Positions 1 to 51,675 of a stretch of DNA of 64,000 nucleotides are shown here, one piece after another. The notes beneath the pieces were generated by a model, which searched no databases, had not been told where the DNA came from, and saw only the letters and a program-made list of their open reading frames with translations. Positions within the stretch are counted from its first letter, which is position 1; each line of letters starts with the position of its first letter. The translations under genes were made by a program, and so were the position numbers. Source of the DNA: an uncultured Candidatus Saccharibacteria bacterium (GTDB lineage Bacteria; Patescibacteriota; Minisyncoccia; Phycocordibacterales; Phycocordibacteraceae); contig CAYHLC010000002.1 of NCBI GenBank assembly GCA_964357395.1, positions 41,033-105,032 on the forward strand, written 5' to 3'.

Positions 1-130
1 TCGTTGTTAGGAGGTCTTTAAGGAATTCTTTCATGGCGGCCCTCCCCTTTAGGGCACTTGTGGCTGTATAGAGCGTGTCGAGTGTCTCGATCCTCTCTTC
101 CTCGCTCAGCTCTTTGATCTTCCGCTTCAT
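1..130 (-). CDS. TrpR-like YerC/YecD family protein (5' part only; start codon at 128-130, runs off window)
   Basis: Reverse-strand translation MKRKIKELSEEERIETLDTLYTATSALKGRAAMKEFLKDLLTT resembles the YerC/YecD TrpR-like motif (..E..FLxDLLT..E). Partial gene. Confidence 0.45.
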   Translation of the reverse strand, partial: MKRKIKELSEEERIETLDTLYTATSALKGRAAMKEFLKDLLTT

Positions 131-148
131 ACTGTTAGCTTATGATTA

Positions 149-174
149 TTATGATATTACATAATATCATAATA
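149..174. promoter_or_regulatory. AT-rich 26-bp motif TTATGATATTACATAATATCATAATA (inverted repeat ATGATAT-N6-ATATCAT) in the divergent intergenic region; 24/26 identical to 51650-51675
   Basis: Direct read. Contains the extended -10-like TGATATTAC and a near-duplicate elsewhere in the window. Confidence 0.4.
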
Positions 175-1523: not shown

Positions 1524-1958
1524 ATGACTGATGCTGCGCCGCGCATAAAAGTTGGTGTAGGTGTTTGGGTCTGGAAGGACGGGAAAGTCCTGATGGGACG
1601 TAGGCTTGTTAAGAACCATAGTGATAACACTTTTGCTTCCCCGGGAGGGCATTTGGAGTTCGGAGAGAGCTTTGAGGACTGTGCCAAGCGCGAGGCGATG
1701 GAAGAGGCTGGCATTGTGGTAGATAACGTTCGAGTCACAACCGTATCCAACCTACTTTTGTGGGAGGGCAAGCACTATGTCGACATAGGCCTGGATGCTG
1801 AGTGGAAGTCTGGTGAGCCGCAGGTGCTTGAGCCAGATAAGTGCGCAGGGTGGGAATGGGTAGATCCTAAAGATCTTAAAGAGCCATTGATGGTGGGTGA
1901 CAGGCTTCGCATAGAGGCAGGCCAGACGGGGAAATGGTATTTTGGGACAATCAAATGA
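1524..1958 (+). CDS. NUDIX hydrolase
   Basis: Canonical Nudix box GHLEFGESFEDCAKREAMEEAGI (Gx5Ex7REUxEExGU). Its stop overlaps the leuS ATG (ATGA). Confidence 0.85.
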   Translation: MTDAAPRIKVGVGVWVWKDGKVLMGRRLVKNHSDNTFASPGGHLEFGESFEDCAKREAMEEAGIVVDNVRVTTVSNLLLWEGKHYVDIGLDAEWKSGEPQVLEPDKCAGWEWVDPKDLKEPLMVGDRLRIEAGQTGKWYFGTIK

Positions 1959-4843
1959 AAGACTACAACCACAAGGATATAGAAAAGAAGTGGCAAGACG
2001 AGTGGCAGAAGAGTGGTATCTACAAAACTCCTGACGTACCGAAGAAGAAGGCATATGTCCTCGACATGTTTCCGTACCCATCAGGCGAGGGGCTCCACGT
2101 GGGCCACCCGAAGGGCTACATAGCGACCGACGTCTACTCGCGCATGAAGCGCATGCAGGGCTACTCGGTACTGCACCCCATGGGTTGGGACGCCTTCGGC
2201 TTGCCGGCAGAGAACTATGCGCTCAAAACCAAGACCCATCCAAGTAAGGCGGTCGCAAAGAATGTTGCGAGATACAAGGAGCAACTCTCAATCATTGGCT
2301 TCGATTACGACTGGACGCGAGAGATAGATACGACCGATCCTAAGTACTACAAGTGGACGCAGTGGATCTTCCTGAAGTTGCTGGAGAAGGGGCTCGCAGT
2401 CCAGTCCTTCGCACCTATCAACTGGTGCCCGTCATGTCAGACCGGACTTGCGAACGAGGACGTCGAGGCTGATGGTACGTGCGAGCGCTGTGGCACTAAG
2501 GTAGAGAAGCGCCCTATGCGCCAATGGGTACTGAAGATAACTGATTATGCCGAGCGACTCCTTGCAGACATCGACCAGCTTACCCGCTGGCCGGAGCATA
2601 TAAAGGAGATGCAGCGCAACTGGATTGGCAAGAGCGAGGGCGCTGAAATATACTTTGAACTAAAGTTTACGGACGCGAAGCAAAACGAGAATCGTGACCC
2701 TGAGGGCAATAAGGCTCGCATACCAGTATTCACCACTCGACCCGACACGCTCTATGGCGCGACCTACATGGTGCTTGCCCCCGAGCATCCGTGGGTGACG
2801 CTCGCCTTGGATAAGAACCATAAAGGAATACTTCCGAATGTTGATGAGGTCCGCGCATATGTGGAGGGTGCAAAGCAGAAAGGTGAGATAGAGAGAACGG
2901 CGGAAGGAAAGGAGAAGACGGGCGTAGAGCTGCAGGGAGTTAAGGCAATCAATCCAGCAACAAAAGAGGAAATACCAATGTATGTTGCGGACTATGTCCT
3001 CGGCCACTATGGCACCGGCGCGGTGATGGCTGTCCCTGCGCACGACGAGCGCGATTACGCCTTTGCTAAGAAGTATGACCTACCGATTAAGCAGGTGGTC
3101 ATGCCGTGCATGCACGACCTAGTTAAGCCGCCTCAGCCAGGCCTCCCCGAGGTCGCGCGCGACACCGTGGTTGTCTTCTTGAAGGACACTGCAACCGGTA
3201 AGTATGCGGTCTTGGATTGGCACGGTGCACAGGACGGCGTCTCGACCGGCATTATGGGTGGTATCGAGAACGGGGACACACCGGAGGAGGCAGCGCTTGG
3301 TGAGATACGCGAGGAAGCATCCATTCCGAACGCCCGCATCGTGCATACGCTCCGCTGGACCAGCGCAGCTACGTACTGCGCTGCGCATAAGGGTGAGAAC
3401 CGAAGGGCTACTGCGCGCGCCTTCCTTGCGGAAGTAGATGGACTAGCAGAGCAGGGAGCAATAAGCGCAGAGGAGGACACAAAGCACACCCTCGCATGGA
3501 TAACAGAGGATGAACTATTGAAGCGTACAGGACTACCTGAGCATCAGAGGTGGCTGTGGCAGCAGCTCCACATCGAGACGCCTCTTATAGAGGGGGGTGC
3601 TCTCATAAACTCGGGAGAGTTTGATGGCACAGATAACGAGGAAGCAAAAAAGAAGATTACGGAAGCGGTAGGGGGCAAGATGGTGACGACATACAAGTTG
3701 CAGGACTGGGTGTTCAGCAGACAGCGTTATTGGGGTGAGCCGATCCCAGTCATCCATTGCGAGAAGGATGGCGTGGTGCCAGTGCCGGAAAAGGACCTAC
3801 CTGTCGTGCTCCCTGAGGTAGAGCATTACGAGCCAACAGGGACAGGCGAGTCACCACTCGCTAACATCCCCGATTGGGTTAACACAACGTGTCCGAAATG
3901 TGGAGGGCCAGCAAAGCGCGAGACCAATACCATGCCGCAATGGGCCGGCAGTAGCTGGTACTACCTCAGGTACATGGACCCGGATAACAACGATGTGCTT
4001 GTTGATCCGAAAAAGGAAAAGGCATGGGCACCGGTCGACCTGTACGTGGGCGGGGCGGAACACGCAACGCGCCATCTCATATATGCACGCTTCTGGCACA
4101 AGTTCCTGTATGACCAAGGCGTTGTATCTAGCGTTGAGCCATTTACTGAGCTGCATTCAGTCGGCCTCATCCAAGCAGAGGACGGACGCAAGATGAGTAA
4201 GCGCTGGGGCAATGTGATCAACCCGGACGATATAGTGGATCGGTTTGGCGCGGACTCGTTGCGCGTGTATGAGATGTTTATGGGTCCGTTTGGAAACGCG
4301 ATTGCATGGTCCACCAATGGCCTAGTCGGTGCACGCCGATTCATTGAGCGTATCTGGAGGCTTAGCGAGAAGGCGGGGGATGAAATACCCGTACTCGAAA
4401 CTGTACTCAACTTTACTATCCAAAAGGTGGGGGTTGATATTGCGGAATTCAAGTTCAATACGGCCGTGTCCCAAATGATGATCCTCCTGAATGCTGCCGA
4501 AGCAGCTGGTATAGGTCGTACCCAGCTTGCAACCTTCCTTAAGTTAGTCGCCCCGTTCGCGCCACACGTGGCTGAGGAGCTCTGGCAGGGGATGGGGAAC
4601 AAGGGCTCCGTCCACCTGGAGGAGTGGCCGACCTATGACCCCGCAAAACTGGTCGCGGAGACCGTAGTGGTGGCAATTCAGGTAGGAGGGAAAATGAAAG
4701 GAACAATCCAGGTACCCCGCGACTCTAGCCAGGATGAGGTCCTGAATGAAGTGCGGAAGAGCGAAAAAATGGCTCAATATATGGCTGAAAAGCCATCCAA
4801 GGTAATCTTCGTGGCTAACAAGATTATTAACCTAATTCCATGA
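1955..4843 (+). CDS. leuS: Leucyl-tRNA synthetase with an extra ~160-aa Nudix-like insertion
   Basis: HVGH (HIGH) motif, editing-domain TTRPDT and GTGAVMAVPAHDERD, KMSKR (KMSKS) motif, and a conserved C-terminal domain. Likely start is the ATG at 1955 (MKDYNH..). The ORF track starts at 1934. Confidence 0.95.
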   Translation: MKDYNHKDIEKKWQDEWQKSGIYKTPDVPKKKAYVLDMFPYPSGEGLHVGHPKGYIATDVYSRMKRMQGYSVLHPMGWDAFGLPAENYALKTKTHPSKAVAKNVARYKEQLSIIGFDYDWTREIDTTDPKYYKWTQWIFLKLLEKGLAVQSFAPINWCPSCQTGLANEDVEADGTCERCGTKVEKRPMRQWVLKITDYAERLLADIDQLTRWPEHIKEMQRNWIGKSEGAEIYFELKFTDAKQNENRDPEGNKARIPVFTTRPDTLYGATYMVLAPEHPWVTLALDKNHKGILPNVDEVRAYVEGAKQKGEIERTAEGKEKTGVELQGVKAINPATKEEIPMYVADYVLGHYGTGAVMAVPAHDERDYAFAKKYDLPIKQVVMPCMHDLVKPPQPGLPEVARDTVVVFLKDTATGKYAVLDWHGAQDGVSTGIMGGIENGDTPEEAALGEIREEASIPNARIVHTLRWTSAATYCAAHKGENRRATARAFLAEVDGLAEQGAISAEEDTKHTLAWITEDELLKRTGLPEHQRWLWQQLHIETPLIEGGALINSGEFDGTDNEEAKKKITEAVGGKMVTTYKLQDWVFSRQRYWGEPIPVIHCEKDGVVPVPEKDLPVVLPEVEHYEPTGTGESPLANIPDWVNTTCPKCGGPAKRETNTMPQWAGSSWYYLRYMDPDNNDVLVDPKKEKAWAPVDLYVGGAEHATRHLIYARFWHKFLYDQGVVSSVEPFTELHSVGLIQAEDGRKMSKRWGNVINPDDIVDRFGADSLRVYEMFMGPFGNAIAWSTNGLVGARRFIERIWRLSEKAGDEIPVLETVLNFTIQKVGVDIAEFKFNTAVSQMMILLNAAEAAGIGRTQLATFLKLVAPFAPHVAEELWQGMGNKGSVHLEEWPTYDPAKLVAETVVVAIQVGGKMKGTIQVPRDSSQDEVLNEVRKSEKMAQYMAEKPSKVIFVANKIINLIP

Positions 4844-4913: not shown

Positions 4914-5969
4914 ATGGCAAAACTAACATTCAAACCCCAGGCAGTTAGCAAGCGTCTCGTACAGAATCTTCCGGAGCGATCGAGAGACGTCGTCGTGAGT
5001 CGTTACGGACTAGGAGACAAGAAGGGCGCAGAGACCTTGGATGCCATCGGCAAGCGATACGGCATTACTCGCGAGCGTGTACGCCAGATCGAGAGCCACG
5101 CTATCAAGGCTATCCAGGACTCGCCAGCGCTCGCCAAGGAAGCTGGCGCGCTACAGTCACTCGAGAGCGCTATTCGCGACATGGGCGCCGTACTTCCGGA
5201 GCACAGCATCCTCACCGAGTTTGCTACTGATCCTGAGACCAAGAATCATTTGTATTTCCTCATGGTTGTTGGCAAGCCGTTCATTTCGAGGAAGGAGGAC
5301 GACAACTTCAAGACGCGTTGGTACGTCGATGAGTCAGTCGCCAAGGCAGTCGAGGATGCACTAAAGACGGTACACCAGAGTATCAAGCCGAACGATGTGG
5401 TGACTGAAGACAAGCTGGTTGATCACGTACTCTCGTGCCTCTCTCGCGTCAACGTTAAGTACAAGAACAAGGACACCGCACGCCGCTGGCTCGACCTCTC
5501 AAACTGCCTGATGCGCAACCCGCTTGGAGAGTGGGGCCGCTCGGGCGCACCAGGTATCAAGCTCAAGAACATTCGTGATCATGCGTACCTCGCTCTCAAG
5601 CGCCACGGTTCCCCAATGCACTTCCGTGAGGTAGCCAAGGAGATCGACAAGCTTTTCGGCAAACGCGCGCACCAGGCGACGACGCACAACGAGCTGATTA
5701 AGGACAAGCGCTTTGTGTTGGTAGGTCGCGGTATCTATGCCCTCTCTGAGTGGGGCTACCGCCCGGGTGCAGTTATCGACATCATCAAGCATGTCTTGAA
5801 GGAGAAGGGTCCGCTGACTCGAGATGAACTGATCAAGGCCGTTGGTAACGAACGTCACGTTAAGCTCAACACCATCATAGTTAACTTGCAGAGCCCGGCG
5901 CTCTCGAAGACCAAGGACGGCAAGTACGCACTCGCGAAATTGTTCCAAGTTCTGAGTCCAGAGTTCTGA
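4914..5969 (+). CDS. DNA-binding protein with an N-terminal sigma-70 region-4-like HTH and a C-terminal HARE-HTH (RpoE-delta-like) winged helix
   Basis: N-terminus LPERSRDVVVSRYGLGDKKGAETLDAIGKRYGITRERVRQIESHAIKAI resembles sigma70_r4. C-terminus KDKRFVLVGRGIYALSEWGY resembles the HARE-HTH signature. Confidence 0.55.
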   Translation: MAKLTFKPQAVSKRLVQNLPERSRDVVVSRYGLGDKKGAETLDAIGKRYGITRERVRQIESHAIKAIQDSPALAKEAGALQSLESAIRDMGAVLPEHSILTEFATDPETKNHLYFLMVVGKPFISRKEDDNFKTRWYVDESVAKAVEDALKTVHQSIKPNDVVTEDKLVDHVLSCLSRVNVKYKNKDTARRWLDLSNCLMRNPLGEWGRSGAPGIKLKNIRDHAYLALKRHGSPMHFREVAKEIDKLFGKRAHQATTHNELIKDKRFVLVGRGIYALSEWGYRPGAVIDIIKHVLKEKGPLTRDELIKAVGNERHVKLNTIIVNLQSPALSKTKDGKYALAKLFQVLSPEF

Positions 5970-8365: not shown

Positions 8366-9394
8366 GTGCAGACGGTATATGTAGGACTCTCGGGAGGCGT
8401 GGATAGCGCCGTTGCAGCGTACCTCCTCAAGGAGGAGGGCTACCGCGTCGTAGGCGCGTTCATCAAGGGCTGGGAACCAGATTTCCTCCCGTGTACTGGT
8501 GTCGAGGATCGCCTAGCAGCTATGCAGGTAGCGGCACACCTACAGATCCCATTTGTTTCGTATGATCTTAGCGAGGAGTATAAGAAATCGGTCGTAGACT
8601 ACTTCATCGCCGAGTACAAAGTAGGCAGGACACCGAACCCCGACGTTATGTGCAACCGCACTATCAAGTTTGGTGCGTTTTGGGAGCGGGTCCGCGCCGA
8701 CGGCGCCGACTTTATAGCTACAGGACACTACGCCCGAAATCCCCAAGGCGACGCCTTGGGGATTTCGGATGACAAAGAGAAGGATCAAACGTATTTCCTC
8801 TGGACTCTCACCAAGGACGATCTTGCACACACACTGTTCCCGATAGGAAAGTATAAGAAGAGAGAAGTTCGGAAGATAGCAGAAAAGATTAAGCTGCCTA
8901 ACGCCGCAAGGCGAGATTCCCAGGGCCTCTGTTTCCTTGGACACGTCGATATGCACGCCTTTCTGAAGCGTTACCTACCTACTACCGTCGGTACCATATA
9001 TGATACCGATGGCGCAAAAGTGGGTGAGCATGATGGTGCTTGGTTCTATACCCTCGGGCAGCATGTGCCAGTTTCTGGTGACAAGCGCCTGTACGTAGTT
9101 AGCAAGGATGTGGACAGGAATGAACTCGTAGTAGCTGAAACACCCAATTCTGAACGAGGTCGGATCTCATTCACGCTAACCAACGTGAGCTGGGTGTCGG
9201 GGACAGCCCCAACTGGCAAGGTCTTGGTACAGTACCGCTACCACGGTCCCCTGGTCCCTGCCAGCGTTGCGGATTCTGAGCGAGATCGGATCTCGCTCAG
9301 CCTCGCAGAGCCGGTACTCGCAGCTCCTGGCCAGTCGCTCGTCGTCTATTCTGCCAACGGGAAGCTCTGCCTCGGCGGCGGCGTCATCGTTTGA
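8366..9394 (+). CDS. mnmA: tRNA-specific 2-thiouridylase MnmA
   Basis: PP-loop SGGVDSAV, mid-region DQTYFL, and a typical C-terminal barrel. Confidence 0.9.
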   Translation: MQTVYVGLSGGVDSAVAAYLLKEEGYRVVGAFIKGWEPDFLPCTGVEDRLAAMQVAAHLQIPFVSYDLSEEYKKSVVDYFIAEYKVGRTPNPDVMCNRTIKFGAFWERVRADGADFIATGHYARNPQGDALGISDDKEKDQTYFLWTLTKDDLAHTLFPIGKYKKREVRKIAEKIKLPNAARRDSQGLCFLGHVDMHAFLKRYLPTTVGTIYDTDGAKVGEHDGAWFYTLGQHVPVSGDKRLYVVSKDVDRNELVVAETPNSERGRISFTLTNVSWVSGTAPTGKVLVQYRYHGPLVPASVADSERDRISLSLAEPVLAAPGQSLVVYSANGKLCLGGGVIV

Positions 9395-9643: not shown

Positions 9644-10471
9644 ATGACGGAAATAGTGAAGGGCGATGGATCCCGAGAGCTCTTCAATATTCACAAACTT
9701 GCAGACTCATTGGCCCGCTCTGGCGCCAACAAGGACCTCGCGATCCGTGTGTCCGAGCAGATTGCCTCGTCGATACAAGACGGCATGTCGACAACCGAGA
9801 TATACAGAAACGCATACAAGATCCTGCACAAAGAGGAGCGCATTGCTGCAGCCCGGTACTCCATGCGCCGCGCTATATTGGAACTCGGCCCGACTGGATA
9901 TCCGTTCGAGGACTATGTGTCGGAGCTGATGAGGGCGAAGGGGTACGAAGTCCGCACCCGCGTCATGGTTCCTGGTAGATGCATCGAGCACGAGGTGGAC
10001 GTCGTGATGACCAAGGACGGCAAGACTATCGGCGCGGAACTCAAGTTCCATAACCAACCTGGATTTAAGACGGATGTGAAGATTGCCCTGTATGTCAAAG
10101 CTCGGTTCGACGATATCGACCAAGCGGTACGCGAGACGCACAAGGAGCGCGAGATCCACGAGGGATGGCTGATCACCAACACCAAATTTACTGACCACGC
10201 TATCCGCTACGCAAGCTGCGGGGGCATCAACCTGCTTGGGTGGGACTACCCAAACAAAGGGAACCTCGACGATCTCATCCGCGAGACTGGCGTGTACCCG
10301 ATCACCGTGCTCACCTCATTAACTGGCGCGGAGAAGAATAGACTCCTCGCAAGCCAGGTTCCACTCTGCAGCATGGTGGCAGAGAATCCAGCACTCCTCA
10401 GGAATGCTGGTGTTCCAGATAAGAAAGTGGCAGGAGTGATAGCCGAGTCTACAGCGCTCTGTAAAGTCTAG
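9644..10471 (+). CDS. ATP-cone domain fused to an Mrr-type (PD-(D/E)XK) restriction-endonuclease catalytic domain
   Basis: Residues 1-90 IVKGDGSRELFNIHKL..RYSMRRAILE fit the ATP-cone. FEDYVSELMRAKGYEV..EHEVDVV..ELKF..GWLITNTKFTDHAIRYAS..INLLGWD fits the Mrr_cat core. Confidence 0.7.
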   Translation: MTEIVKGDGSRELFNIHKLADSLARSGANKDLAIRVSEQIASSIQDGMSTTEIYRNAYKILHKEERIAAARYSMRRAILELGPTGYPFEDYVSELMRAKGYEVRTRVMVPGRCIEHEVDVVMTKDGKTIGAELKFHNQPGFKTDVKIALYVKARFDDIDQAVRETHKEREIHEGWLITNTKFTDHAIRYASCGGINLLGWDYPNKGNLDDLIRETGVYPITVLTSLTGAEKNRLLASQVPLCSMVAENPALLRNAGVPDKKVAGVIAESTALCKV

Positions 10472-10472
10472 T

Positions 10473-11312
10473 ATGTCGGGCTTCTACAAACCGAATCGCA
10501 ACGAGGCCTGGAACTATGGGGGACTGAAGTGGACGCTGTCGCGTTCCAAGATTGACCTGTTTGAGGAGTGTCAACGCTGCTTCTACATCGACAACAAGCT
10601 CGGCACTGCGCGGCCACCTGGATTCCCGTTCAACCTCAACTCGGCAGTAGACGCATTGCTCAAGAAGGAGCTGGATACCCACCGCGCAAACGGGACGCAG
10701 CACCCTCTTGCTAAGGCATATGGAATAGACGCAGTGCCGCTCCAGGACGAGCACATGGACGAATGGCGTGACGCACTCAGCCGCGGTGTTAAGGTACTGC
10801 ACAAGCCAACGGGGCTCTTGGTACGCGGAGCGGTCGACGATATCTGGGTCAACAAGGCTGGCGAACTAATCGTCATCGACTACAAGGCGACGAGCAAGGA
10901 CTCGAAGATAGAGTCACTCGACGAGGACTGGCACCGCGGATACAAAAGGCAGATGGAGATCTATCAGTGGCTGTTGCGGCAAAACGGGTTTAAGGTGTCT
11001 GCAACAGGGTACTGGTTCTATGCCAACGCTACTAGGGATCGCGAGGCATTTGATGGCAGGCTCGACTTCGAGCTCACACTCGTCCCATACACCGGCAACA
11101 CAGATTGGATAGAGGATACACTCATCCGCCTCAAGGAATGCCTTGATAGCGACGTCATACCGCCAGCGGGAGACGACTGCGACTACTGTAAGTACCGCGA
11201 GGTTGTAGGCAAAAAATTAATCGCCCAGCACGCTCTGACCAAGAAGGTAGCAGAACCAGCAAAGGAATCAAAAAAGAAAGACAACAACGACATAACAAAG
11301 CCACTCTTCTAA
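10473..11312 (+). CDS. PD-(D/E)XK nuclease, Cas4/RecB-like with putative Fe-S cysteines
   Basis: Core motif GELIVIDYKAT plus QMEIYQWLL, with an N-terminal CQRC and a C-terminal CDYC. Starts 2 nt after the previous gene. Confidence 0.65.
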   Translation: MSGFYKPNRNEAWNYGGLKWTLSRSKIDLFEECQRCFYIDNKLGTARPPGFPFNLNSAVDALLKKELDTHRANGTQHPLAKAYGIDAVPLQDEHMDEWRDALSRGVKVLHKPTGLLVRGAVDDIWVNKAGELIVIDYKATSKDSKIESLDEDWHRGYKRQMEIYQWLLRQNGFKVSATGYWFYANATRDREAFDGRLDFELTLVPYTGNTDWIEDTLIRLKECLDSDVIPPAGDDCDYCKYREVVGKKLIAQHALTKKVAEPAKESKKKDNNDITKPLF

Positions 11313-12165: not shown

Positions 12166-12193
12166 CATCATATATGATGCATCATATATGAGT
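12166..12193. promoter_or_regulatory. Tandem 14-bp palindrome CATCATATATGATG x2 (second copy 12/14), an operator-like site upstream of the ogt-like gene
   Basis: Direct read. Near-identical to the 32-bp perfect palindrome at 25831-25862 and shares flanks (AAAAC..palindrome..TTGATTGGCAGCG). Confidence 0.5.
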
Positions 12194-12224
12194 TGATTGG
12201 CAGCGAGAGTGGTAATGGTAAACT

Positions 12225-12503
12225 GTGAACATGATAAAGCGGAACTTGTTTCGGGAGAAAGTGATACAGATTGTAAGGGGAATCAGGAAAGGTAAGGTGA
12301 TGACATACAAGGAGGTCGCGGCGCGGGCCGGGCACCCCGGCGCTGCGCGAGCAGTGGGTGCCATCATGCGAGTAAATAAGGACAAGAGCATGCCCTGCCA
12401 CCGCGTCATCCGCTCTGACGGCACTCCCGGCGGCTACAATGGATTGCAGGGCACAAAGAGCAAGCGTGTGCTGCTCCTTAAGGAAGGTGTGCGCCTAAAA
12501 TGA
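12225..12503 (+). CDS. ogt: Methylated-DNA-protein-cysteine methyltransferase (Ogt/MGMT) DNA-binding/active-site domain protein
   Basis: Active-site motif PCHRVI and HTH region TYKEVAARAG. GTG at 12225 or ATG at 12231. Confidence 0.8.
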   Translation: MNMIKRNLFREKVIQIVRGIRKGKVMTYKEVAARAGHPGAARAVGAIMRVNKDKSMPCHRVIRSDGTPGGYNGLQGTKSKRVLLLKEGVRLK

Positions 12504-13129
12504 AATCAAAGAAGACCAAGAATCCGGTCCACGAACTTCTGCGGAATCGGTGGAGTCCTCGTTCGTTTTCGAGTGAGGATATTACTGACACCGAGCTCGC
12601 GACCATACTCGAGGCGGCTGCCTGTGCGCCAAGCGCCTTTAACAAGCAGCCGTGGCAGTATCTCTATGCGCGTCGGGGCACGCAGACTTTTGAAAAAATG
12701 CTTTCCTGCATAGCACCGATGAATGCTACGTGGGCCAAGAACGCCGCAGTCCTCATGTTCGGAGTGCTCACTAAGGATTTTGATGGCGGCCGGACTAACT
12801 TATGGGCCGAGCATGATATGGGAGCAGCGGAGATGTCGATGTATGTGCAAGCAACTGCGCTTGGCATCTATGGCCACACAATTGCTGGCTACTGGCATGA
12901 CCCACGCAATACGGTAGATGACTATCCAGGTTCAGTCGGTTTTGATAAGGAGGAAGCAAAGAAACTATTTGTAATACCAAAGGGTTACGAGCCTTATGAC
13001 TTCCTAGCTTTCGGCAGACTTGGCGCCCCAGAATTGTTACCTGCTGAGTATCAGGAAGCTGAGCGCGCAGACAAACCAATAGCTGCAATCGAGACCTTTG
13101 CCTTTAAGGACGAGTTTCCTAAAGCTTAA
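12500..13129 (+). CDS. Nitroreductase family protein
   Basis: Nitroreductase N-terminal motif RRSxRxF..AP..SA.N.QPW (WSPRSFSS..LEAAACAPSAFNKQPWQY). Confidence 0.85.
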   Translation: MKSKKTKNPVHELLRNRWSPRSFSSEDITDTELATILEAAACAPSAFNKQPWQYLYARRGTQTFEKMLSCIAPMNATWAKNAAVLMFGVLTKDFDGGRTNLWAEHDMGAAEMSMYVQATALGIYGHTIAGYWHDPRNTVDDYPGSVGFDKEEAKKLFVIPKGYEPYDFLAFGRLGAPELLPAEYQEAERADKPIAAIETFAFKDEFPKA

Positions 13130-13812
13130 CTCCAGTCGATGGGCGAGCGGCCATTTTGGGTGAGGTAGTCGTTTGCTAGCTTGAAGTGGCCGTTACCGAG
13201 GAAGCCGTTGTGGGCGGAGAGCGGGGACGGGTGCGCGGACTCGAGCGCCAGATGCTTTGATGCATCGATCAGTACAGCCTTTTTGCGAGCAAATGCTCCC
13301 CAGAGCATAAAGACGACATGCTCTTGCGTGTGCGATATCGCAGCGATTGCTGCGTCGGTAAAGAGGTGCCAGCCCATATCAGCATGCGAGTTTGCCTGGC
13401 CGCTGCGAACAGAAAGCGATGCATTGAGGAGGAGTACACCCTGCTCTGCCCATCTTGTTAAGTTTGGATCGCGCGAGGGTGGTGTGCCGAACTCAGCAGC
13501 AATTTCTTTAAAGATATTCTGGAGCGATGGTGGGACTGGACTGGGAGGCACTGTAGAGAAGGCGAGTCCGTCCGCAACGCCCGGCGTGTGGTATGGATCC
13601 TGGCCGAGTATGACGACGCGGACCTCGCTCGGCTTCACCAGCTCAAACGCGCGGAACACACGTGATGGGTGTGGGAAGACGGGACCCTTGAGGTACTCCT
13701 CGCGCACAGCACTTGAGAGCTCTACAAAGTAAGGCTTGCCGAACTCCTCTTCAAGAAGGAGTCTCCATTCGGGGGCAATCTTTACGTCTTGCGCGGGGCC
13801 GGGCATCACCAA
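13126..13812 (-). CDS. ung: Uracil-DNA glycosylase (family 1)
   Basis: Motifs ILGQDPYH, GLAFS and LLLNASLSV, plus a His-containing C-terminal motif. Confidence 0.9.
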   Translation of the reverse strand: MVMPGPAQDVKIAPEWRLLLEEEFGKPYFVELSSAVREEYLKGPVFPHPSRVFRAFELVKPSEVRVVILGQDPYHTPGVADGLAFSTVPPSPVPPSLQNIFKEIAAEFGTPPSRDPNLTRWAEQGVLLLNASLSVRSGQANSHADMGWHLFTDAAIAAISHTQEHVVFMLWGAFARKKAVLIDASKHLALESAHPSPLSAHNGFLGNGHFKLANDYLTQNGRSPIDWS

Positions 13813-25830: not shown

Positions 25831-25862
25831 CATATCATATATGATGCATCATATATGATATG
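25831..25862. promoter_or_regulatory. Perfect 32-bp palindrome CATATCATATATGATGCATCATATATGATATG (two tandem 14-bp palindromes CATCATATATGATG), an operator-like site upstream of the small-ORF/grpE-dnaK-dnaJ region
   Basis: Direct read. Followed by a TTGACT-17-TATCTT promoter candidate at 25892-25920. No CIRCE sequence is present. Confidence 0.55.
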
Positions 25863-26288
25863 AATTTGGTCAGCGTTCGGTTTGTAACGCTTTGACTTTG
25901 GACTAAAGTAGGCGTATCTTGCAAACAATGGCAAATCTAGATCGAGGAGTCGTAGAGGGTCTGTCGCGTGGCGCTGAGGAGGCAGCCGCTCGCCATGAAA
26001 CTGCATCAGGCCTTATGAAGTGGGTATACAGATCATCCGCTGTTGGACTCAGCCTCACACTCTTTTGCGCGATCTTCGCAGCGGCAAACGGATAGTGTAG
26101 TATGCCGGCATGCAAGAAGGTGCAATACAGGAGTCAGTGCCGAGCGAGGGTGACGAGGAGCTGAGGAAGTGCTCAACCTGCGGCAAGGATACCTGGCAGG
26201 TGTATGTGCAAGGTAAATGGGTTTGCTTCCAGAGAGCCTAGCCCAAACATTGGCGGATAGGCAGAATAGTTTTATACTGACAGATACT

Positions 26289-26792
26289 ATGACAGACGAT
26301 GTTGATGATGTTGTATTAGAGGACGATGATGGCGGGGGGCATACGGGGACCCCAGAGCAGAAGCTGAAGACCTTGCGAGATAAGTTGCGAAAGGCCGAGC
26401 ATGAGGCGGGGGAGAACCTTGCTGGGTGGCAACGCGCCAAGGCAGACTATGTCAACTTACAGAAGCGTCTCCGCGAGACCGAGAGCGCGGTAGGGCAGGC
26501 CGGCGCAGCGGCAGCACTGCGCGAGTTAGTACCACTCTTCGACTCACTAGAGGCAGGCGGGCAAGAGGTGCTTCTGAAGCAGCTCGACACGACGTTATTG
26601 AGACTCGGAGCCACACGCTACCGGCCTGAAAGCGGAGAGGTATTCGATCCTGTTCGTGAGGAGGCGATGTCGGTAGTTGCGCCGGAAGCGAAAGAGGAGG
26701 ATAATACTATTCACTCCGTCCTGCAATCTGGGTATAGCATCGGAACACTCATTATTAGGCCAGCTCGCGTAACCGTATATCATCAGTCATAA
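26289..26792 (+). CDS. grpE: Nucleotide exchange factor GrpE
   Basis: Coiled-coil region, then GrpE C-terminal region [12 protein letters not shown]...[34 protein letters not shown]. Start is uncertain: ATG at 26289 chosen (acidic N-terminus); the track ORF starts at 26217 but overlaps an upstream small ORF. Confidence 0.8.
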
Positions 26793-26797
26793 ATCCT

Positions 26798-28642
26798 ATG
26801 GGAAAAATTTTGGGAATCGACCTTGGAACTACTAACTCAGCCGCCGCAATAATTGAGGGTGGTGAGCCGCGCATCATCGAGAACTCGGAGGGCAACCGTA
26901 CGACCCCATCGGTCGTCGCGATCTCCAAGACCGGAGAGCGCCTTGTCGGCCTTGTTGCCAAGCGCCAGGCAGTCACGAACCCAACGAACACGGTGTACGG
27001 CATCAAGCGCTTCATGGGCCACAAGTTCTCTGACCCTGCAGTCCAGAAGGACAAGGGGATAGTCCCCTACATCATTAGCGCTGCGAGTAACAGTGGCGTG
27101 CAGGTTAAGCTGGGTGATAAGGAGTACAGCCCCGAGGAGATCTCCGCCATGATCTTGCAAAAGCTGAAGGGCGACGCGGAGGCCAAGCTCGGCGAGCCGA
27201 TAACGGAGGCCATCATTACCGTTCCGGCATACTTCGATGACGCGCAGCGTCAGGCGACCAAGGACGCAGGCAAGATCGCTGGCCTCGACGTAAAGCGTAT
27301 TATCAACGAGCCAACGGCAGCAGCGCTCGCATACGGATTTAACAAGCGGAAGAACGAGCAGATAGTAGTCTATGACTTTGGAGGAGGGACCTTCGACATC
27401 TCCGTACTCGAGGTTGGGGATGATGTGATCGAGGTCAAGGCGACTGGGGGCGATAGCCACATGGGCGGCAGAGACATCGACCAAAAGATCGTCCGCTGGG
27501 TTGCTAACGAGTTTAAGAAGGAGAGCGGACTTGATGTCACTAACGACCCACTCGCCCTGCAGCGCCTCGACGAGGCCGCAGAGAAAGCGAAGCACGAGCT
27601 CTCGACCACAATGGAGACGGAGATCAACATCCCGTTCATCACCTCTGACTCGTCTGGCCCGCGGCATCTCCTCCTGAAGCTCACACGCGCAACGCTCGAG
27701 GAGCTCTCGCGCGAGTATATCGATCGATCTATTGACATCACCAAGCAGGTCTTGGAGTCAGCCAAGATGCAGTCATCCGCTATCGAGGAGATAGTGATGG
27801 TTGGCGGCCAGACTCGCATGCCTGCTATCCAGGAAGCTGTTAAGAAGCTCTTCAACAAGGAGCCAAACCGTAGCATCAACCCGGACGAGGTAGTAGCAGC
27901 CGGCGCCGCTATCCAGGCAGGCATCTTGCAGGGCGACGTCAAAGACGTCTTACTCCTCGACGTCATCCCGCTCTCACTCGGTATCGAGACTATGGGTGGG
28001 GTTGCAACCAAGCTTATCGAGCGGAACACTACTATTCCGACATCCAAGTCTCAAGTCTTCTCTACCGCATCCGATAGTCAGACATCTGTAGAGATCCATA
28101 TCGTCCAAGGCGAGCGTGCAATGGCGAATGACAACAAGTCCCTTGGCCGCTTCCACCTCGACGGAATACCGCCAGCACCAAGAGGCATGCCACAGGTCGA
28201 GGTGTCGTTCGATGTCGACGCTAACGGAATCCTGAAGGTGACCGCCAAGGACAAGTCGACGAACAAAGAACAGACCATACGTATCGAGAGCCGCGGGGGC
28301 CTGAGTGATGCAGATATTGAGAAGATGAAGAGCGACGCGGCCGCACACGCCGACCAGGACCAAAAGGCAAAGGAGCTTATAGAGACCAGGAACATCGCAG
28401 ACTCCATGATCTATACCGCGGAAAAGTCGCTTTTGGATCATAAGGACAAGATCGCAGAGGATGTACGCACATCGGTGCAGGCTGCAATCGATGAGGTGAA
28501 GAGGGTGAAGGATAGTGGAGACACTGGAGGGATTAAGGAAGCAACGCAGCGCCTCTCAGCGGAGATGCAGAAGATAGGTCAAGCAATGCAGGGCCAACAG
28601 ACACCGCCGCAGGAAGGACAGCAAGACGCACCTCCTAATTAA
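26798..28642 (+). CDS. dnaK: Chaperone DnaK (Hsp70)
   Basis: [18 protein letters not shown] and the full Hsp70 architecture (614 aa). Confidence 0.97.
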
Positions 28643-29733
28643 TGGCTACCGACTACTATTCGATTCTGGGCGTTGACAAGAAAGCGTCGAAAGACGATAT
28701 CAAAAAGGCGTTTCGCAAGCTCGCGCACAAGTATCACCCCGACAAGTCGGGCGGCGACGAAAAGAAGTTTAAGGAAGCGAGCGAGGCGTACGCAGTCCTC
28801 TCGGATGACAAGAAGCGCGCTGAGTACGACTCGTACGGACGCGTCTTCGGCTCCGGTGGTGGAGGGGCGGGCGGCAATCCGTTTGATGGATTCGACTTCT
28901 CACAGTTTGGTGGCTTCGGCAACGGTCAAGGTGGCGGGTTCGAGGTCAACTTGGACGACTTGTTTGGTGGCTTCTCTGACATATTTGGTAGTGGAGGCAA
29001 GCGCAGCGGCCGGAGGGGTAGAGACATATCGATAGATATCGAGCTCTCGTTCAAGGAGTCTGTGTTCGGTGTCGAGCGCCATGTCCTCCTCACCAAGGAC
29101 AGTAGCTGCAGCCGCTGCTCGGGGAATGGTGCCGAGCCGGGTTCGAAGACCAAGACCTGTCCAACCTGTAACGGCAAGGGACAGATAGTCGAGAGCCAGC
29201 GCTCTCCGTTTGGGACCTTCTCGGTTGCAAAGACTTGCACCACTTGCCACGGCAAGAAGACGGTACCCGAAACTGTGTGTACCAAGTGTCGTGGTGCTGG
29301 TGTCGAGCGGAAGGAGGAGGAGATCGTGATAGCAGTGCCACCAGGAATAGATAACGGGCAGGTGATCCGCATGACCGAGATGGGTGAGGCTATTAGTGGC
29401 GGGAAGTCGGGGGACCTCTATATCAAGGTGCATGTTTCTGCGGACTCCAAGTTCCGCAAAGAGGGCTTCAACATCGTTACCGATCTATCTATCAAAGTCA
29501 CTGATGCATTGATGGGGGCGGACTATACACTCGATACGCTAGACGGACCGGTCACTGTGACTGTGCCGCCGCTCCGCGCCACAGACGAGATCTTGCGCGT
29601 CAAGGGCAAGGGCGTGCCGATGGATGGCGGGAAGCGTGGCGACCTCCTCATCCGCGTCAAGCTCGAGTTCCCACACAAACTCTCGCGCGATGCACAGGAA
29701 CTCCTGAGGCAGCTGAAGCAGGAAGGCATATGA
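28642..29733 (+). CDS. dnaJ: Chaperone DnaJ
   Basis: J-domain with HPD (KYHPDK), a G/F-rich region, and a CxxCxGxG zinc finger x4. Confidence 0.95.
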
Positions 29734-30164
29734 TGCACTTCCGCGCCCGTGGTGTTGCAGTGCAGAGCGACAAGATCTTCCTCGCGCATCATCTTGGAGG
29801 CAAGGGCCATTACTTCCTACCAGGCGGACATATCGAGGATGGAGAGGCAGCACGAAGGACGGTCGAGCGCGAGTACCTCGAGGAAACGGGCCTGACGGTA
29901 ACTGCTACCGATTTTCTGTTTGCGTCTGAGCATGCGTATGTGGACGAGCAGGGCCAGCATGCAGAGATCAATCTGATATTCAAAGTAGAAGGGGACATAC
30001 CTACGGAGCCTACTTCGGCTGAGGAGCACTTGGAGTTTGTGTGGGTGGCCGCAGCCGACTTGCATACTATTAACTTTCTCCCTACTCAGTTCATTCCACC
30101 ACTCGTCGCTTACATCGAGGGCAGGGCAGTGCCCTCATTCCACAGCACTATTCGGAAGGAGTAA
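29730..30164 (+). CDS. NUDIX hydrolase
   Basis: Nudix box [24 protein letters not shown]. Overlaps the dnaJ stop (ATGA). Confidence 0.85.
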
Positions 30165-36797: not shown

Positions 36798-36932
36798 ATG
36801 CGAGTATTTCAACTAACTAGAAAGAACGGTACCCGCACCATTTCTGCATTTCCTCACAAGGGCACCCTTACTGCCCACTCCGATGGCAAGGACAAAGGCT
36901 CCCAATTCGTACTCGAACTACCGCTTCTTTAG
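36798..36932 (+). pseudogene. Remnant duplicate of the histidine-kinase 3' end (HKGTLTAHSDGKDKGSQFVLELPLL*)
   Basis: 36855-36932 encodes 25 aa about 80% identical to the last 26 aa of the HK at 36190-36269. A possible 44-aa ORF from the ATG at 36798. Confidence 0.45.
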
Positions 36933-37712
36933 GGTTGGATTACTCTTTGTAGTATTAATATCAAGTCTCGTCGCCTCCTCAAAGGCGAGATCAAACACTT
37001 TTTTCATAGCATCTGCGATTGCAGCATTCTCAATATGAATTGCCACCAAGTCCTTATGCAGCATAAATCCGACTGTGTCGTCAAAGATTGCGAAATCTGA
37101 ATTGAACGCCCAGCGCTCGGGCGGGATAAGTTTGATCTGGTCAAGCGGTGCATAGTGCTTGCGTATGTAGTCTCCTTGCTCCGAAAAGGGATGGATGCCA
37201 TACATCGCGATACCTAACTCCGTACGTCTTTGCACATATTTTGGCAAATAATCGGGCAGACTTCGCTGTATATCATCGGCTGATGAAACTACGCGCATGA
37301 CTTTATCGCGTACTCGCAAGGTCTCCTCAAACGATTGGATCAGACCGGCCTTACCCTCAAGAATTCTAACTCTTGGTTTTTGTTTGGTATCTCTGTGCAG
37401 AGATTTTAGATCGGGGAGTAGGTCGTTAATGCTGCGTTCGATTTTTGCCTGCTTCTCAGCAGCGTCCGCTGCTCTTTCTACCAACATGTCTGGCGATGAG
37501 GCAACGTACTGCTTGGTCGTCTCGCCGACAGACACACTTGCCAAGCCTTTTTCGCGCAGAGATTCAAGAACCACATAGGCAGAGCTTCGATTGAGCTCCG
37601 CCTTGCTTGCCACCTCGTGTGCTGTCGCAACCTCAAGCTCTAGGAGCGCAAGGTACGCCCGTGCCTCCTTGTCTGAGAGGCCAAACTTGGTCAGTGCAGC
37701 TAGGGGTTTCAT
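36918..37712 (-). CDS. TrmB-family transcriptional regulator
   Basis: N-terminal HTH FGLSDKEARAYLALLELEVATAHEVASKAELNRSSAYVVLESLREKGL typical of TrmB, and a C-terminal TrmB-like regulatory domain. Confidence 0.65.
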   Translation of the reverse strand: MKPLAALTKFGLSDKEARAYLALLELEVATAHEVASKAELNRSSAYVVLESLREKGLASVSVGETTKQYVASSPDMLVERAADAAEKQAKIERSINDLLPDLKSLHRDTKQKPRVRILEGKAGLIQSFEETLRVRDKVMRVVSSADDIQRSLPDYLPKYVQRRTELGIAMYGIHPFSEQGDYIRKHYAPLDQIKLIPPERWAFNSDFAIFDDTVGFMLHKDLVAIHIENAAIADAMKKVFDLAFEEATRLDINTTKSNPTLKKR

Positions 37713-39819: not shown

Positions 39820-39903
39820 TTGCAATCGCTTGTTCTCGAGACGGTTTACTACGGCGCTCTCCTCCGTCGTCATGGGATGTAATATTTGCATGAATTCATA
39901 TGA

Positions 39904-39932
39904 TTGACAACAAGTACCAGATTTGCATAACT
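39904..39932 (+). promoter_or_regulatory. Promoter candidate TTGACA-17-ATAACT upstream of the RHS gene, flanked by repeated ATTTGCAT motifs
   Basis: Direct read: TTGACA at 39904-39909 and ATAACT at 39927-39932. ATTTGCAT occurs at about 39885 and 39921. Confidence 0.4.
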
Positions 39933-39968
39933 GTAGGCATGAATGGGCTTTGGGGTCTACCCGGTCCT

Positions 39969-42900
39969 ATGCGCATCGTTTCGTTTGCGCTTCTCATTTT
40001 CTTTGCGTTGCCGATTACGCTTTATGCGGCGTTTGGTGATGGCGCTCCAACGATCTTTAACCCAGACGTATTTACCGATACGTCATCTCAACTTCGCGTC
40101 GATGGGTCTACTGGGGCGTTTACTCAGCGAGTTTCGATTGCTATTCCACCGGGGCGGAGTAGCCTGCAGCCGGACCTGGCGCTCGACTATAATAGTCAGC
40201 GCGCGGAGGACAGCATAGTTGGGTACGGTTGGTCGCTCTCGATCCCATATATCCAACGCTTCGCCCCAACAGGCTCGCAGGACTTGTACTCGGGCAATGC
40301 GCGCTTCATCTCTTCGATGGATGGTGAGCTGGTAGCAGTTACTGCACCAACAGTTACACACCGTGCCAGAGTTGATACCGGCGCGTATAACGCCTATACC
40401 TATTTGAACAATACGTGGGTGGTGTATGACAAAAAGGGTACCAAGTATACCTTCGGCTCCGCAGACAGTGGACGGCAGTACGATACTGCTACTACCTCGA
40501 CCCGGACGTACAAGTGGACGTTGCAGGAGATTCGGGACACCAACAATAACTACATTACCTATACCTACTCGAAGAGTGGTAACGAGATCTACCCGGCTAC
40601 CGTTACATATACCGGTAACAATGTTACCGAGGGACCCTTCACCGTCAACTTTGCGACTAGCACCAGGCCAGACGTGCGCGAGAGCTACAAGCCAGGCTTC
40701 AAAGTCACCACGAACTATCGGATTTCGGAGATAACCGCCTCGATCTCGGGCTCAGTAGTCAACCGCTATACACTCGCATACGGGACAGGCTCTAACAACA
40801 AGCGCTCGCTGCTTACCTCTGTGCAGCGCCAGGGCTATGCCGAGGACGCGTCGTCGGTGACGCTCCCTGCCATGACCTTTACCTACGCCAGCTCCTCGTC
40901 GATGTTCTATGCCCCAAGCGGAGGCGGGTACCAACTGCAACAGGCGTACCTAGCCGCTGATGCAAACGGCAACGGCATACTTGATGTCAACTATTTCAAC
41001 AACAATAATAACGGTACGGGGAACCATGGTGAGATTTACGCGGACCAAGCTACGAGTGTACAAAATCTAGTGCCACCAGAGTTCTGGGGCTATTTCGGTA
41101 CCCCACAGGAACGCGGTACTCGTTTTCTTGATGTGAATGGTGATGGCAAGGCTGACATTGTACGTGGTCTTAAGGACGACGCACAGAGCACAACAACATC
41201 GAGCCTCTATACCAACGCTGGCGGATACAGTTGGGCGGCGTCGTCAACGTTCAATGGGGTTATCCCAGCATTTGGATACTACGACCCGTCATCATACGCC
41301 TTCACCACCGGCATTTTCGGGGAGGTAAATGGTGATGGACTGCCGGACTATGCGATGCATTTCCCAAACACGGCAACAGAAACGTATCTGGGCAACGGCT
41401 CTGCATGGACTGCAACTTCCACTATATTTGCCCCACTATACGCCTTCCCATTCTCTGCGCCGACTGAACGTGCATCACAGCTGGTAGATGTTAATGCTGA
41501 TGGCCTCGATGATTGGGTGTATTCGGATGGCTCAAGCACGCTGGTGCGTCTCAATAACGGTACCGGGTGGGACGCTGCTGCAAGCAGCCAGTGGACTGTT
41601 GCCACCTCGACCCTCTATGCTATTGGCGGCGGATACCACGACCGCGGTATACGGTTTATGGACCTAAACGGCGACGGTCTGCAAGACTACGTGCGCTCAT
41701 ACGGAGCTGCGTGTACGCAGAGCACATTGGTAGAGGCGACTACTACCCAGCAGGTGTTGCTCAATACTGGCAATGGCTGGGCTACCTCGACCGCATACAC
41801 GCTTCCTGCAGCTGTCACCTACGCTCAGGGAAGTGGTGGTACGTGCAATGGTGGCTTTTCATACAGCGAATATGCAAATTGGACTGGGAACGGGCAGATG
41901 CTGCAGGACGTGATCACGAGTGTTACCTCGTCGCAAGGCGCGACCAAGACTATTACCTACACACCATCAGCGCAGCTCGGTACTAACCCCGATCTGCCAG
42001 TGTCGCTCCTCGTGGTCACGCAGATTGTTGAGAATGACGGCTTTAGTACCTCTGGTACTACGTCGTATGCGTATCAGGGTGGCAAGATCTACTTGGACGG
42101 GGGAGTGGCGGATAGGAAGTTTGCTGGCTTTGCAATCTCCACAGTCACCGCGCCCGACGCAATCACTACTACGTATTACAACCAGGGGGATGGTATCAAC
42201 ACTGCACTCGGCGAGCAAAGCGACGGCTTCGGTCAGATCAACCGACCATTCCGCAAGGACGTGCTGGACCTCAGCGAGACCCTGGTACAGCGCATGTACT
42301 ACCGATCCGACACCAATACCGCCTCGAGCAGCATATTTGTTGGTACTGGACGCGAGATGACGTTTGATTACGGTACGGGAGGGTCACACCGTGATAGGGC
42401 CTCTGAGTACGTGTATGCGACCACAAGTCGTGACGTAATAAGCATGACCGAGTATGGTCAGGTCACCGGCTCCGCAGACGGCACCTTTAGCGATACTGGC
42501 ACTGACAAGAGGACGGCAGTATTTGCATACACCGCAAGCAGTACAGCTGTCAGTCTACCGAGGACTAAAACATTGTTTGATAATGCTGGCGCGACCACCA
42601 CTGACGAACGTTATTACTACGACGGCCTGGCGCTTGGCAGTGCTACCAAGGGTAATAGAACGAAAGTGGAGCGACTCAAATCAGGATCGACCTATGTCAG
42701 TGACCAGCTCGCCTTTAATACATACGGCCTGGTCGCGTCTACAACTGATCCGCGGGGTAATATCACCACACTAACCTACGACGCACGTAACCTGTATGTT
42801 GCAACCAGTACCAACCCACTGTCGCATCAGACCCAGTTCTATTACGACTACACACTTGGCAAGCCGAAGCAGACGATAGATCCGAACACTCGTGTATTTG

Positions 42901-48102: not shown

Positions 48103-48273
48103 ACCTTTGGAGATAAGTATCTCACTCCATTCCTATATGGTTATCGAGCAACGCGGGAAGAGAAGAGAAATGGTAACAGCAAGAACTGCCGATTTGGATA
48201 TTGAACTCTCACCAATGTGGGATGCATATCAGGGGAAACGGTGTCAGGTACCGTTTCGTGATACACTTGCCCT

Positions 48274-48948: not shown

Positions 48949-48991
48949 CACCATTTCCCCATTTCCATTTCCAAATGATATAATGTATTCT

Positions 48992-49211: not shown

Positions 49212-49469
49212 ACGTCCATTTTCTTCTCCCTCTCCTGGAACAATGGCTCCAGCTGGACCAGTACCAAGACCGCCACGGTGGATGGCACGACCGACGCCAC
49301 ATACACCCTTGGAGGTGTCACCGACACCTGGGGGAGAGCATGGACTGATACCGAGCTCGCAGACGGAACATTCCGTCTGATGGTCGATAAGGCAAGTGAT
49401 CCAGACACATATTCCAAAACGCGATACACTGCACCAGATGAAGCCTCAAATACAATTCATCACAGCTAA
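49212..49469 (+). pseudogene. 5'-truncated fragment homologous to an internal insert domain of the RHS protein (SLSWNNGSSWTSTKTATVDGTTDATYTLGG.TDTWGR.WTDTEL)
   Basis: The 85-aa frame, open from just after the TAA at 49209-49211, is closely similar to RHS region 46450-46640. No start codon and no RHS core. Confidence 0.55.
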
Positions 49470-51649: not shown

Positions 51650-51675
51650 TTATGATATAACATAATATCAAAATA
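51650..51675. promoter_or_regulatory. AT-rich 26-bp motif TTATGATATAACATAATATCAAAATA (24/26 identical to 149-174), 8 nt upstream of the Nudix ATG
   Basis: Direct read. Contains TGATAT-N6-ATATCA and the extended -10-like TGATATAAC. Confidence 0.4.

Follow-up and report, generated by a model that had tools for sequence, protein, structure and literature searches.

What reads a tandem palindrome that stands in front of a DNA-repair gene in a bacterium of the Candidate Phyla Radiation (CPR)? The 64-kb stretch of DNA analysed here (the window) belongs to a metagenome-assembled genome of groundwater Patescibacteria (CPR) from the 0.1 µm filter fraction of Hainich well H41. CPR bacteria are uncultivated, with tiny genomes and few regulators, and we know of no gene regulation of DNA repair described for this group. 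Positions 12166-12193 of the window read CATCATATATGATG then CATCATATATGAGT, two adjacent 14-bp palindromic units (site 1) upstream of MGMT, the gene for an O6-alkylguanine-DNA alkyltransferase. The motif recurs at the orthologous gene in a second lineage, where it also adjoins a gene for a small TrpR-like protein. These features suggest, with a probability of about one half, that a CPR-specific regulator of the TrpR family (TrpR/YerC-HisR superfamily) binds the tandem 14-bp palindromes as two dimers and controls MGMT (with its nitroreductase neighbour) and the uracil-DNA glycosylase gene (UDG).

Two tandem sites and the MGMT locus

The elements and genes involved, with the palindromes of this class called type A, are the following.

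12166..12179, no strand: predicted type-A operator site 1, distal unit CATCATATATGATG, centre at -58.5 from the MGMT ATG
12180..12193, no strand: site 1, proximal unit CATCATATATGAGT, centre at -44.5, 3 nt short of the -35-like TTGGCA
12197..12224, + strand: predicted MGMT promoter TTGGCA-16-TGgTAAACT (extended -10), ending 6 nt before ATG 12231
12231..12503, + strand: MGMT/ogt-family O6-alkylguanine-DNA alkyltransferase, C-terminal domain only, 90 aa, PCHRV active site
12500..13129, + strand: nitroreductase-family gene, its start overlapping the MGMT stop (ATGA)
13126..13812, - strand: UDG, convergent with MGMT-nitroreductase
25833..25860, no strand: predicted type-A operator site 2, TATCATATATGATG followed by CATCATATATGATA, centre at -81.5 from ATG 25928

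The preliminary description of the window had reported a tandem 14-bp palindrome at site 1, with a second copy and conserved flanks, and this was borne out by the letters. The near-identical site 2 is a 28-bp palindrome without mismatch, whose symmetry reaches 22-nt arms, and a 25-nt core, ATCATATATGATGCATCATATATGA, is common to the two sites without differences. Their surroundings are also alike (87% identity over a 45-nt segment), with AAAAC/AAAACC on the 5' side and TGA(A)TT(T)GG(T)CAGCG on the 3' side. That such copies are unlikely to arise by chance was confirmed by counting: the 14-mer has seven matches in the window at three mismatches or fewer, against 2.06 expected, and none of 100 shuffled sequences contained seven or more. 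Sites 1 and 2 are the sole perfect or near-perfect intergenic matches. Two further good matches fall in coding sequence, at 8992 (mnmA) and 50968 (an aldehyde dehydrogenase gene), and were rejected as sites, conserved peptide motifs accounting for both. The mnmA match (8992-9005) is a perfect type-A unit, TACCATATATGATA, within codons for GTIYDT; since the same codons recur in mnmA of the relative L043 (7941-7954), a genome without the regulon, this unit is a coding coincidence.

Over 15 units from the window and its relatives, the type-A consensus is YAYCATATATGRTR, i.e. two inverted YAYCATA heptads 7 bp apart, of which CATATATG is unchanged in all units but one (14 of 15). Units follow one another every 14 bp in the window and every 14 or 16 bp in relatives. 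That the tandem element is a protein-binding operator can be held with much higher confidence than any assignment of the protein. As a palindrome, it is an operator of ordinary type; what gives it interest is the lineage and the regulon, with no new mechanism.

The gene behind site 1 is, as first proposed, a genuine ogt-type gene (Pfam PF01035, TIGR00589; PCHRV active site), and it is translationally coupled to the nitroreductase gene. Its start had been placed at GTG 12225, 27 nt past a TTGATT hexamer overlapping the palindrome; homologues support instead ATG 12231 and a 90-aa product (P0192). The hexamer (12193-12198) does share the last base of the site, but TTGGCA at 12197 makes the better promoter. 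For genes that open operons in this window (54% G+C), the usual promoter element is TG-n-TANNNT with its end 6 nt from the ATG, in at least 13 cases; for example, the rule holds for the starts at 1524, 5990, 7225, 8366, 9644, 12231, 16023, 48274, 50261 and 54984, with no Shine-Dalgarno sequence. This geometry therefore points to leaderless mRNAs from extended -10 promoters, which appear to be the dominant architecture of the genome. The MGMT element keeps it in relatives: TGgTAAACT in the window corresponds to TGgTAAAAT in L038, TGaTAGAAT in L042 and TGtTAGAAT in L034. Relative to such starts (A of the ATG being +1), the sites are centred as follows.

MGMT in the window: -51.5
55-aa open reading frame (ORF) behind site 2 in the window: -81.5
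MGMT in L038: -78.5
MGMT in L042 (single unit): -82.5
UDG in L038 and L042: -63.5

Counted from the leaderless start, all sites fall between -38 and -96, and none covers the -10 element or +1. At the TrpR-like gene of the second lineage (see below), the proximal unit lies 5 nt before a -35-like hexamer, as judged by eye from the sequences. Helical phasing of the centres (-51.5, -63.5, -78.5 and -81.5/-82.5) hints at a single face of the DNA and was set aside as too inconsistent for use.

The motif in relatives and its TrpR-like neighbour

The motif-bearing sample consists of two lineages and three genomes among the sequences examined: the window, and L038 and L042, which form the second lineage. 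In L038 (GCA_964492095.1), which keeps the MGMT-UDG-M13 peptidase-AlaRS synteny, three tandem sites lie within 9.8 kb, each of them between genes.

L038, 331-358: tandem site, units 14 bp apart, divergent promoter region
L038, 3839-3868: tandem site, units 16 bp apart, upstream of MGMT
L038, 4918-4947: tandem site, units 16 bp apart, upstream of UDG
L042, contig start: tandem site, at which the contig begins exactly
L042, 556-569: single unit, between the divergent TrpR-like gene and MGMT
L042, 2113-2142: tandem site, upstream of UDG

The preliminary description had made its case depend on conservation at orthologous loci, and the motif was indeed present upstream of the orthologous MGMT in both L038 and L042. 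These two are close relatives (AlaRS 94%, TrpR-like protein 99%), and the window shares with them 64-65% identity in AlaRS and 50% in the M13 peptidase. Since the motif stands at the MGMT promoter in both lineages despite about 65% AlaRS identity, it has been kept over a long distance. None of the eight site locations in these genomes falls inside a gene. UDG lacks a type-A site in the window, and its counterparts in L038 and L042 have a tandem one upstream. Three genomes at a similar distance (L034, L037 and L043) have no site at MGMT, and in L043 and L037 the gene is fused into the upstream operon. Syntenic relatives that have no TrpR-like gene at these loci have no motif either. L043, for example, is fully syntenic with the window from DUF5671 on, has no TrpR-like gene at the matching place and retains there a degenerate palindrome (CCTGTATGATA followed by TATCATACAGG).

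Between MGMT and UDG, the gene content varies, and this slot is a hot spot of gene gain.

Window: nitroreductase, 12500-13129
L042: dCMP/cytidine deaminase, 914-1396
L034: 132-aa protein, 10273-10671
L038 and L043: empty

Beyond the copy in the window itself, the nitroreductase has one relative of 61% identity, in another gene context; the next homologues are about 43% identical, and the few named among them come from non-CPR phyla. The gene is a lineage-specific insertion between MGMT and UDG; because the slot is variable and the nearest homologues are only about 43% identical, its membership of the regulon would be recent. Nitro-stress, which had been counted as part of a shared regulon, thus drops out of the conserved core.

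Wider searches for the motif gave no further relatives. In the genome collection, the pattern TCATATATGA-N4-TCATATATGA had nine matches, none with the TGCA junction (0/9) and none related. In the metagenome scan, ATCATATATGATGCATCAT was found in no CPR relative beyond the window's own organism (L024); the two patterns are too specific to the window's variant. The other metagenome matches to ATCATATATGATGCATCAT were AT-rich chance matches, proteobacterial split-transketolase promoters and one XRE-antitoxin locus (L023), in which the HTH_3 gene follows a small ORF without Pfam match that resembles, by eye, a RelE/ParE-type toxin. In L012 (2521), L017 (6474), L025 (5739) and L028 (3020), and also in L015 and L026, a TTGAC -35 element follows ATCATATATGATGCATCAT after 2 nt, and the gene behind it resembles, by eye, the N-terminal subunit of a split transketolase. 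In these high-G+C, presumed proteobacterial contigs the sequence appears to be a conserved operator of another factor. The viral-contig scan gave one match, a chance one in a contig of 28% G+C, and literature searches gave no paper on CPR regulons or on the motif sequence.

A candidate for the binding protein is encoded at the left end of the window, together with a palindrome of a second type (type B).

2..130, - strand: Trp_repressor-family gene, N-terminal 43 codons, running off the window's left end; candidate regulator
149..172, no strand: type-B palindrome TTATGATATTA-CA-TAATATCATAA, at -19..-42 of the TrpR-like gene
51650-51673: second copy of the type-B palindrome, 10 nt upstream of the NUDIX gene at 51683

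The window fragment is 60% identical over 43 aa to the TrpR-like protein of L038 and L042. In these two genomes, a type-A unit (TACCATATATGATA) sits 61 nt upstream of the start of the Trp_repressor-family gene, and in L042 this gene diverges from MGMT over a 149-nt spacer. The full-length protein has 145 aa. Its family assignment is solid: the L038/L042 protein scores 37-40.6 bits against Pfam PF01371 (cutoff 27), which is matched by 12 of 13 aligned family members (11 cluster representatives, the L042 protein and the window fragment). A profile of the family finds the YerC-like structures 3frw, 3kor and 3g1c with E values between 5e-13 (3frw) and 1e-9; for E. coli TrpR the value is about 6e-5. 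Scores remain below the NCBIfam equivalog cutoffs, with 22.2 against 67.25 bits for TrpR (TIGR01321) and 19.8 against 42.2 for YerC/YecD (TIGR02531), and the protein is best placed in a separate small subfamily, outside the characterised TrpR and YerC/YecD groups.

With the window fragment as query, the family proved small, with 22 cluster representatives found at E<1e-3. Its closest full-length representative, P0315, is 67% identical to the fragment over all 43 residues, and three partial or shorter matches reach 69-70%. The recognition-helix segment reads TIWRVQKW in P0315 and TVYRVQKW in L042. The members have in common the core TLDxLYTAA...GRxAMKxFLRDLLTxSERIMLGRR and, at the C-terminus, the tail LKRKYPLHFLLFP.

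The type-B palindromes (class consensus TTATGATAT-W-ACATAATATCAWAA) contain the type-A heptads (TATGATA/TATCATA), but in everted orientation and 8 bp apart. They are absent from L038, L042 and L043. Two other genes of the window were considered as the regulator and rejected: a TrmB-family gene (36918-37712), with no association with any site, and a sigma70_r4/HARE-HTH gene (4914-5969), likewise without site association and present in the motif-less L034 and L043. The latter is a conserved syntenic gene (L034 76-1104, L043 4114-5148) combining an N-terminal sigma-70 region 4 with a C-terminal HARE-HTH.

A possible regulon and its alternatives

If the TrpR-like protein is the binder, one dimer would occupy each 14-bp unit, so that a tandem site would carry two neighbouring dimers, spaced by 14 bp in the window. 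The protein encoded from position 130 (- strand) would be the candidate there. Dimers bound just upstream of the core promoter could modulate the leaderless MGMT(-nitroreductase) promoter in answer to a small-molecule signal. Ligand-dependent repression seems the likeliest mode, because of family precedent and because the promoters look self-sufficient, the site-less L034 having an equivalent extended -10. For the sites at -63 to -96, activation or roadblocking of read-through would also be compatible. MGMT and UDG would form the conserved core of such a regulon, joined in the second lineage by the gene for the regulator itself.

Site 2 would place a further small gene under the same control. 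It lies downstream of the rpoA-rplQ-rplM-rpsI genes and a 77-aa gene, and is followed by these features.

25892..25920, + strand: predicted promoter TTGACT-17-TATCTT, ending 7 nt before ATG 25928
25928..26095, + strand: 55-aa ORF, its C-terminal segment hydrophobic, without Pfam match, the first gene past site 2
26250..26278, + strand: separate promoter-like element TTGGCG-17-TATACT, directly before grpE
26289-26792, + strand: grpE, true start 26289, 167 aa
26798-28642, + strand: dnaK
28642-29733, + strand: dnaJ
29730-30164, + strand: NUDIX gene

The preliminary description took the two palindromes to stand before stress or damage genes and to unite repair and chaperones in one regulon. This view stands for site 1 and for the repair part, to which UDG can be added, and is weakened for site 2, which directly precedes the 55-aa ORF and not dnaK; the conserved partners of MGMT are UDG and the TrpR-like gene. 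The link of the motif to chaperones appears weak because it is seen in one genome only, with the site 430 nt from grpE, the ORF in between and a separate grpE promoter. Read-through from the small-ORF promoter is at most what could bring grpE-dnaK-dnaJ-NUDIX under site 2. In two relatives at a similar distance, L031 and L032, grpE has a plain promoter without type-A motif, and none was found elsewhere in their examined sequence; the grpE contig of L030 starts 30 nt upstream of the -35 element and is uninformative on the motif. The gene 3' of dnaJ was considered as an HspR gene and rejected, being a NUDIX hydrolase gene. A tentative and rather unlikely extension is that a CPR branch of TrpR acts as master regulator of a damage-tolerance regulon, which would take in the repair of alkylated bases and of uracil, Nudix hydrolases and, in certain lineages, nitroreductase and the Hsp70 operon.

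Several points weigh against the TrpR-like protein as the type-A binder. The TrpR-like gene of the window is preceded by type B and not by type A, in place of the type-A unit found at its counterpart in L038 and L042, and this is why confidence in the protein assignment stays near one half: either one protein tolerates both geometries or a second factor exists, and the cognate factor of type A could be another protein. The DNA-binding part of the window's protein lies beyond the window edge. The consensus YAYCATATATGRTR is unlike the known motifs of the family (a 20-bp palindrome with GNACT or TTTA half-sites), and positions outside -10 and +1 are atypical for simple steric repression. The association of the motif with the TrpR-like gene rests on few independent events, in two lineages. 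Moreover, an unrelated contig of 65% G+C (L023) contains an identical 30-bp palindrome, ATATCATATATGATGCATCATATATGATAT (479-512), 17 nt before an HTH_3 (XRE) antitoxin-like gene.

This last match, together with the type-B palindrome across the promoter of the window's TrpR-like gene, favours the main rival, namely that the sites are operators of another transcription factor encoded elsewhere (e.g. of XRE/Cro type with a helix-turn-helix), the TrpR-like gene being just a target with its own type-B operator. The half-site TATCA(Y) presumably resembles lambda-type operator half-sites. However, no XRE or other candidate regulator was found near any CPR site in ~120 kb, and only one DNA-binding gene, the TrpR-like one, adjoins the motif repeatedly, at a conserved 61 nt. 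The L023 palindrome is a single match of a 19-mer scan over a very large collection and may be a coincidence. Another factor is a possible yet doubtful explanation. A more distant one, which we regard as improbable, would make the palindromes recombination or mobility sites bounding gene cassettes, with their promoter position secondary and the TrpR-like protein an accessory factor. Comparison of L038 (331-3868) with L042 (496-644) reveals a 3.5-kb cassette (LCAT and a 127-aa membrane protein) exactly between two sites, of which L042 retains one junction unit. In L042, moreover, the TrpR-like gene has the motif on both sides and a tandem site stands at the very start of the contig. The helix-turn-helix of the protein faintly resembles those of transposases and resolvases, with weak HTH_23, HTH_7, HTH_Tnp_ISL3 and IS630 matches. 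The repeats do seem to promote rearrangement and assembly breaks in L038 and L042. But deletion between short repeats needs no dedicated system, and contig ends at repeats are an assembly effect. No recombinase or transposase lies beside any site, and the window's only transposase, an IS200-like Y1 gene (48274-48948, element 48232-48960), has unrelated 24-nt inverted repeats (GGGGAAACGGTGTCAGGTACCGTT and its complement). Unlike mobile junctions, the motif stays at the orthologous MGMT promoter over about 65% AlaRS identity.

The symmetry of the sites could also act in RNA: transcripts from upstream would end in a long, AU-rich hairpin with a role in termination, processing or stability. The sites fold to hairpins of -16 to -25 kcal/mol (z-scores -2.4 to -6.9) and most lie 3' of a co-directional gene, but any palindrome can form a hairpin. 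There is no U-tract, the sites were unflagged in a terminator scan and had no Rfam match, and their stems are pure A/T with 2-4 G:C pairs. The sequence itself is kept between loci and lineages, with no compensatory changes, and the sites at 331-358 in L038 and 556-569 in L042 lie in divergent promoter regions without an upstream transcript. A dimeric DNA-binding protein is favoured over an RNA hairpin because each 14-mer is itself palindromic and a lone unit is kept in L042; a role in RNA is accordingly very improbable. The flanks of the two window sites can be aligned over about 45-60 nt, which suggests common descent and could make them neutral relics of a local duplication of a segment of about 60 nt. 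We give this hardly any credence, the motif being found at three more loci in each of two genomes of the other lineage, intergenic, promoter-proximal and with perfect symmetry kept.

Some other features of the window are recorded here. The leucyl-tRNA synthetase (1934-4843, 969 aa) contains an inserted NUDIX domain (residues 435-539, E 9e-7), and its syntenic counterpart in L043 has only 807 aa. NUDIX occurs at least six times in the 64 kb (1524, 29730, 49396, 49833, 51683 and the insert in leucyl-tRNA synthetase). A 171-nt direct repeat, 83% identical, is present at 46453-46623, in the 3' part of a 2561-aa ORF (39900-47585), and at 49222-49392, just before the NUDIX gene at 49396.

Comparison with known regulatory systems

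Intrinsic terminators and repetitive extragenic palindromes differ from the element described here, which has no G+C-rich stem with a U-tract and is found also where promoters diverge and, in one case, as a single unit. With HrcA-CIRCE and HspR-HAIR it has in common an inverted repeat upstream of a grpE-dnaK-dnaJ cluster. However, the operon contains no hrcA or hspR, with a NUDIX hydrolase gene after dnaJ; the site is far from grpE, which has its own promoter, and is absent at grpE in L031 and L032. There is no hrcA between rpsI and grpE, and CIRCE (TTAGCACTC-N9-GAGTGCTAA) has no match in the window at three mismatches or fewer.

Ada offers a precedent for an alkyltransferase gene under dedicated transcriptional control. 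Ada senses and activates via its own N-terminal domain and binds AAAGCGCA-type boxes, to which the present operator is unrelated, whereas the window protein comprises the C-terminal domain only (Ada model positions 267-348). The LexA/SOS system is a functional analogue, with a palindromic operator common to several DNA-repair genes and the regulator's own gene. The loci studied here differ in having no LexA gene or SOS box (CTGT-N8-ACAG, GAAC-N4-GTTC), and the 64-kb window contains no LexA-like gene. MGMT and UDG are not typical SOS genes, and the targets seen at the motif are MGMT, UDG, the TrpR-like gene, LCAT and the small ORF, with no recA, uvr or lexA among them. The result listings of a literature search gave no description of a LexA motif in Patescibacteria. 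If the TrpR branch were a master regulator, it would fill the roles of LexA and HrcA in reduced genomes and sense a metabolite.

Several dimers of E. coli TrpR, whose operators lie at trp, aroH and trpR, bind in tandem on one operator, an arrangement comparable to that proposed here. The closest solved or annotated relatives of the candidate belong to HisR (YerC/YecD; 3frw, 3kor, 3g1c), below whose cutoff it nevertheless scores. Regulators of the TrpR family bind palindromic operators and often control their own genes (PMC9413887). Both TrpR and HisR repress in dependence on a ligand, through 20-bp palindromes (TGTAcTnGTnnACnAgTACA for TrpR, cacTTTAnnnnnnTAAAgtg for HisR), and the HisR regulons of Firmicutes were found by comparative genomics, with lineage-specific operator consensus sequences (PMC9413887). 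The HisR regulon covers histidine biosynthesis and uptake; its motif differs from the present one, and no his genes occur here. Like E. coli TrpR, the candidate has the Trp_repressor fold signature, and it is associated with palindromic operators, in L038 and L042 also at the regulator's own gene, with closely spaced half-sites (7 bp here, 8 bp for TrpR; PMC9413887). Unlike TrpR, it has the extra C-terminal tail LKRKYPLHFLLFP and scores below the equivalog cutoff; the motif is YAYCATATATGRTR and not TGTAcTnGTnnACnAgTACA, in 14-bp units every 14-16 bp; the sites lie upstream of the core promoter and not over it; and the targets are DNA-repair genes, not tryptophan genes. Such an operator architecture, with tandem 14-bp palindromes at leaderless extended -10 promoters, would be unlike that of any characterised family member. 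That a conserved operator links a small TrpR-like protein to genes for an alkyltransferase and a uracil glycosylase is a definite hypothesis, accessible in vitro with a 145-aa protein and a 28-bp DNA. If it holds, the TrpR family, so far associated with amino-acid control only (TrpR, HisR), would reach the control of DNA repair.

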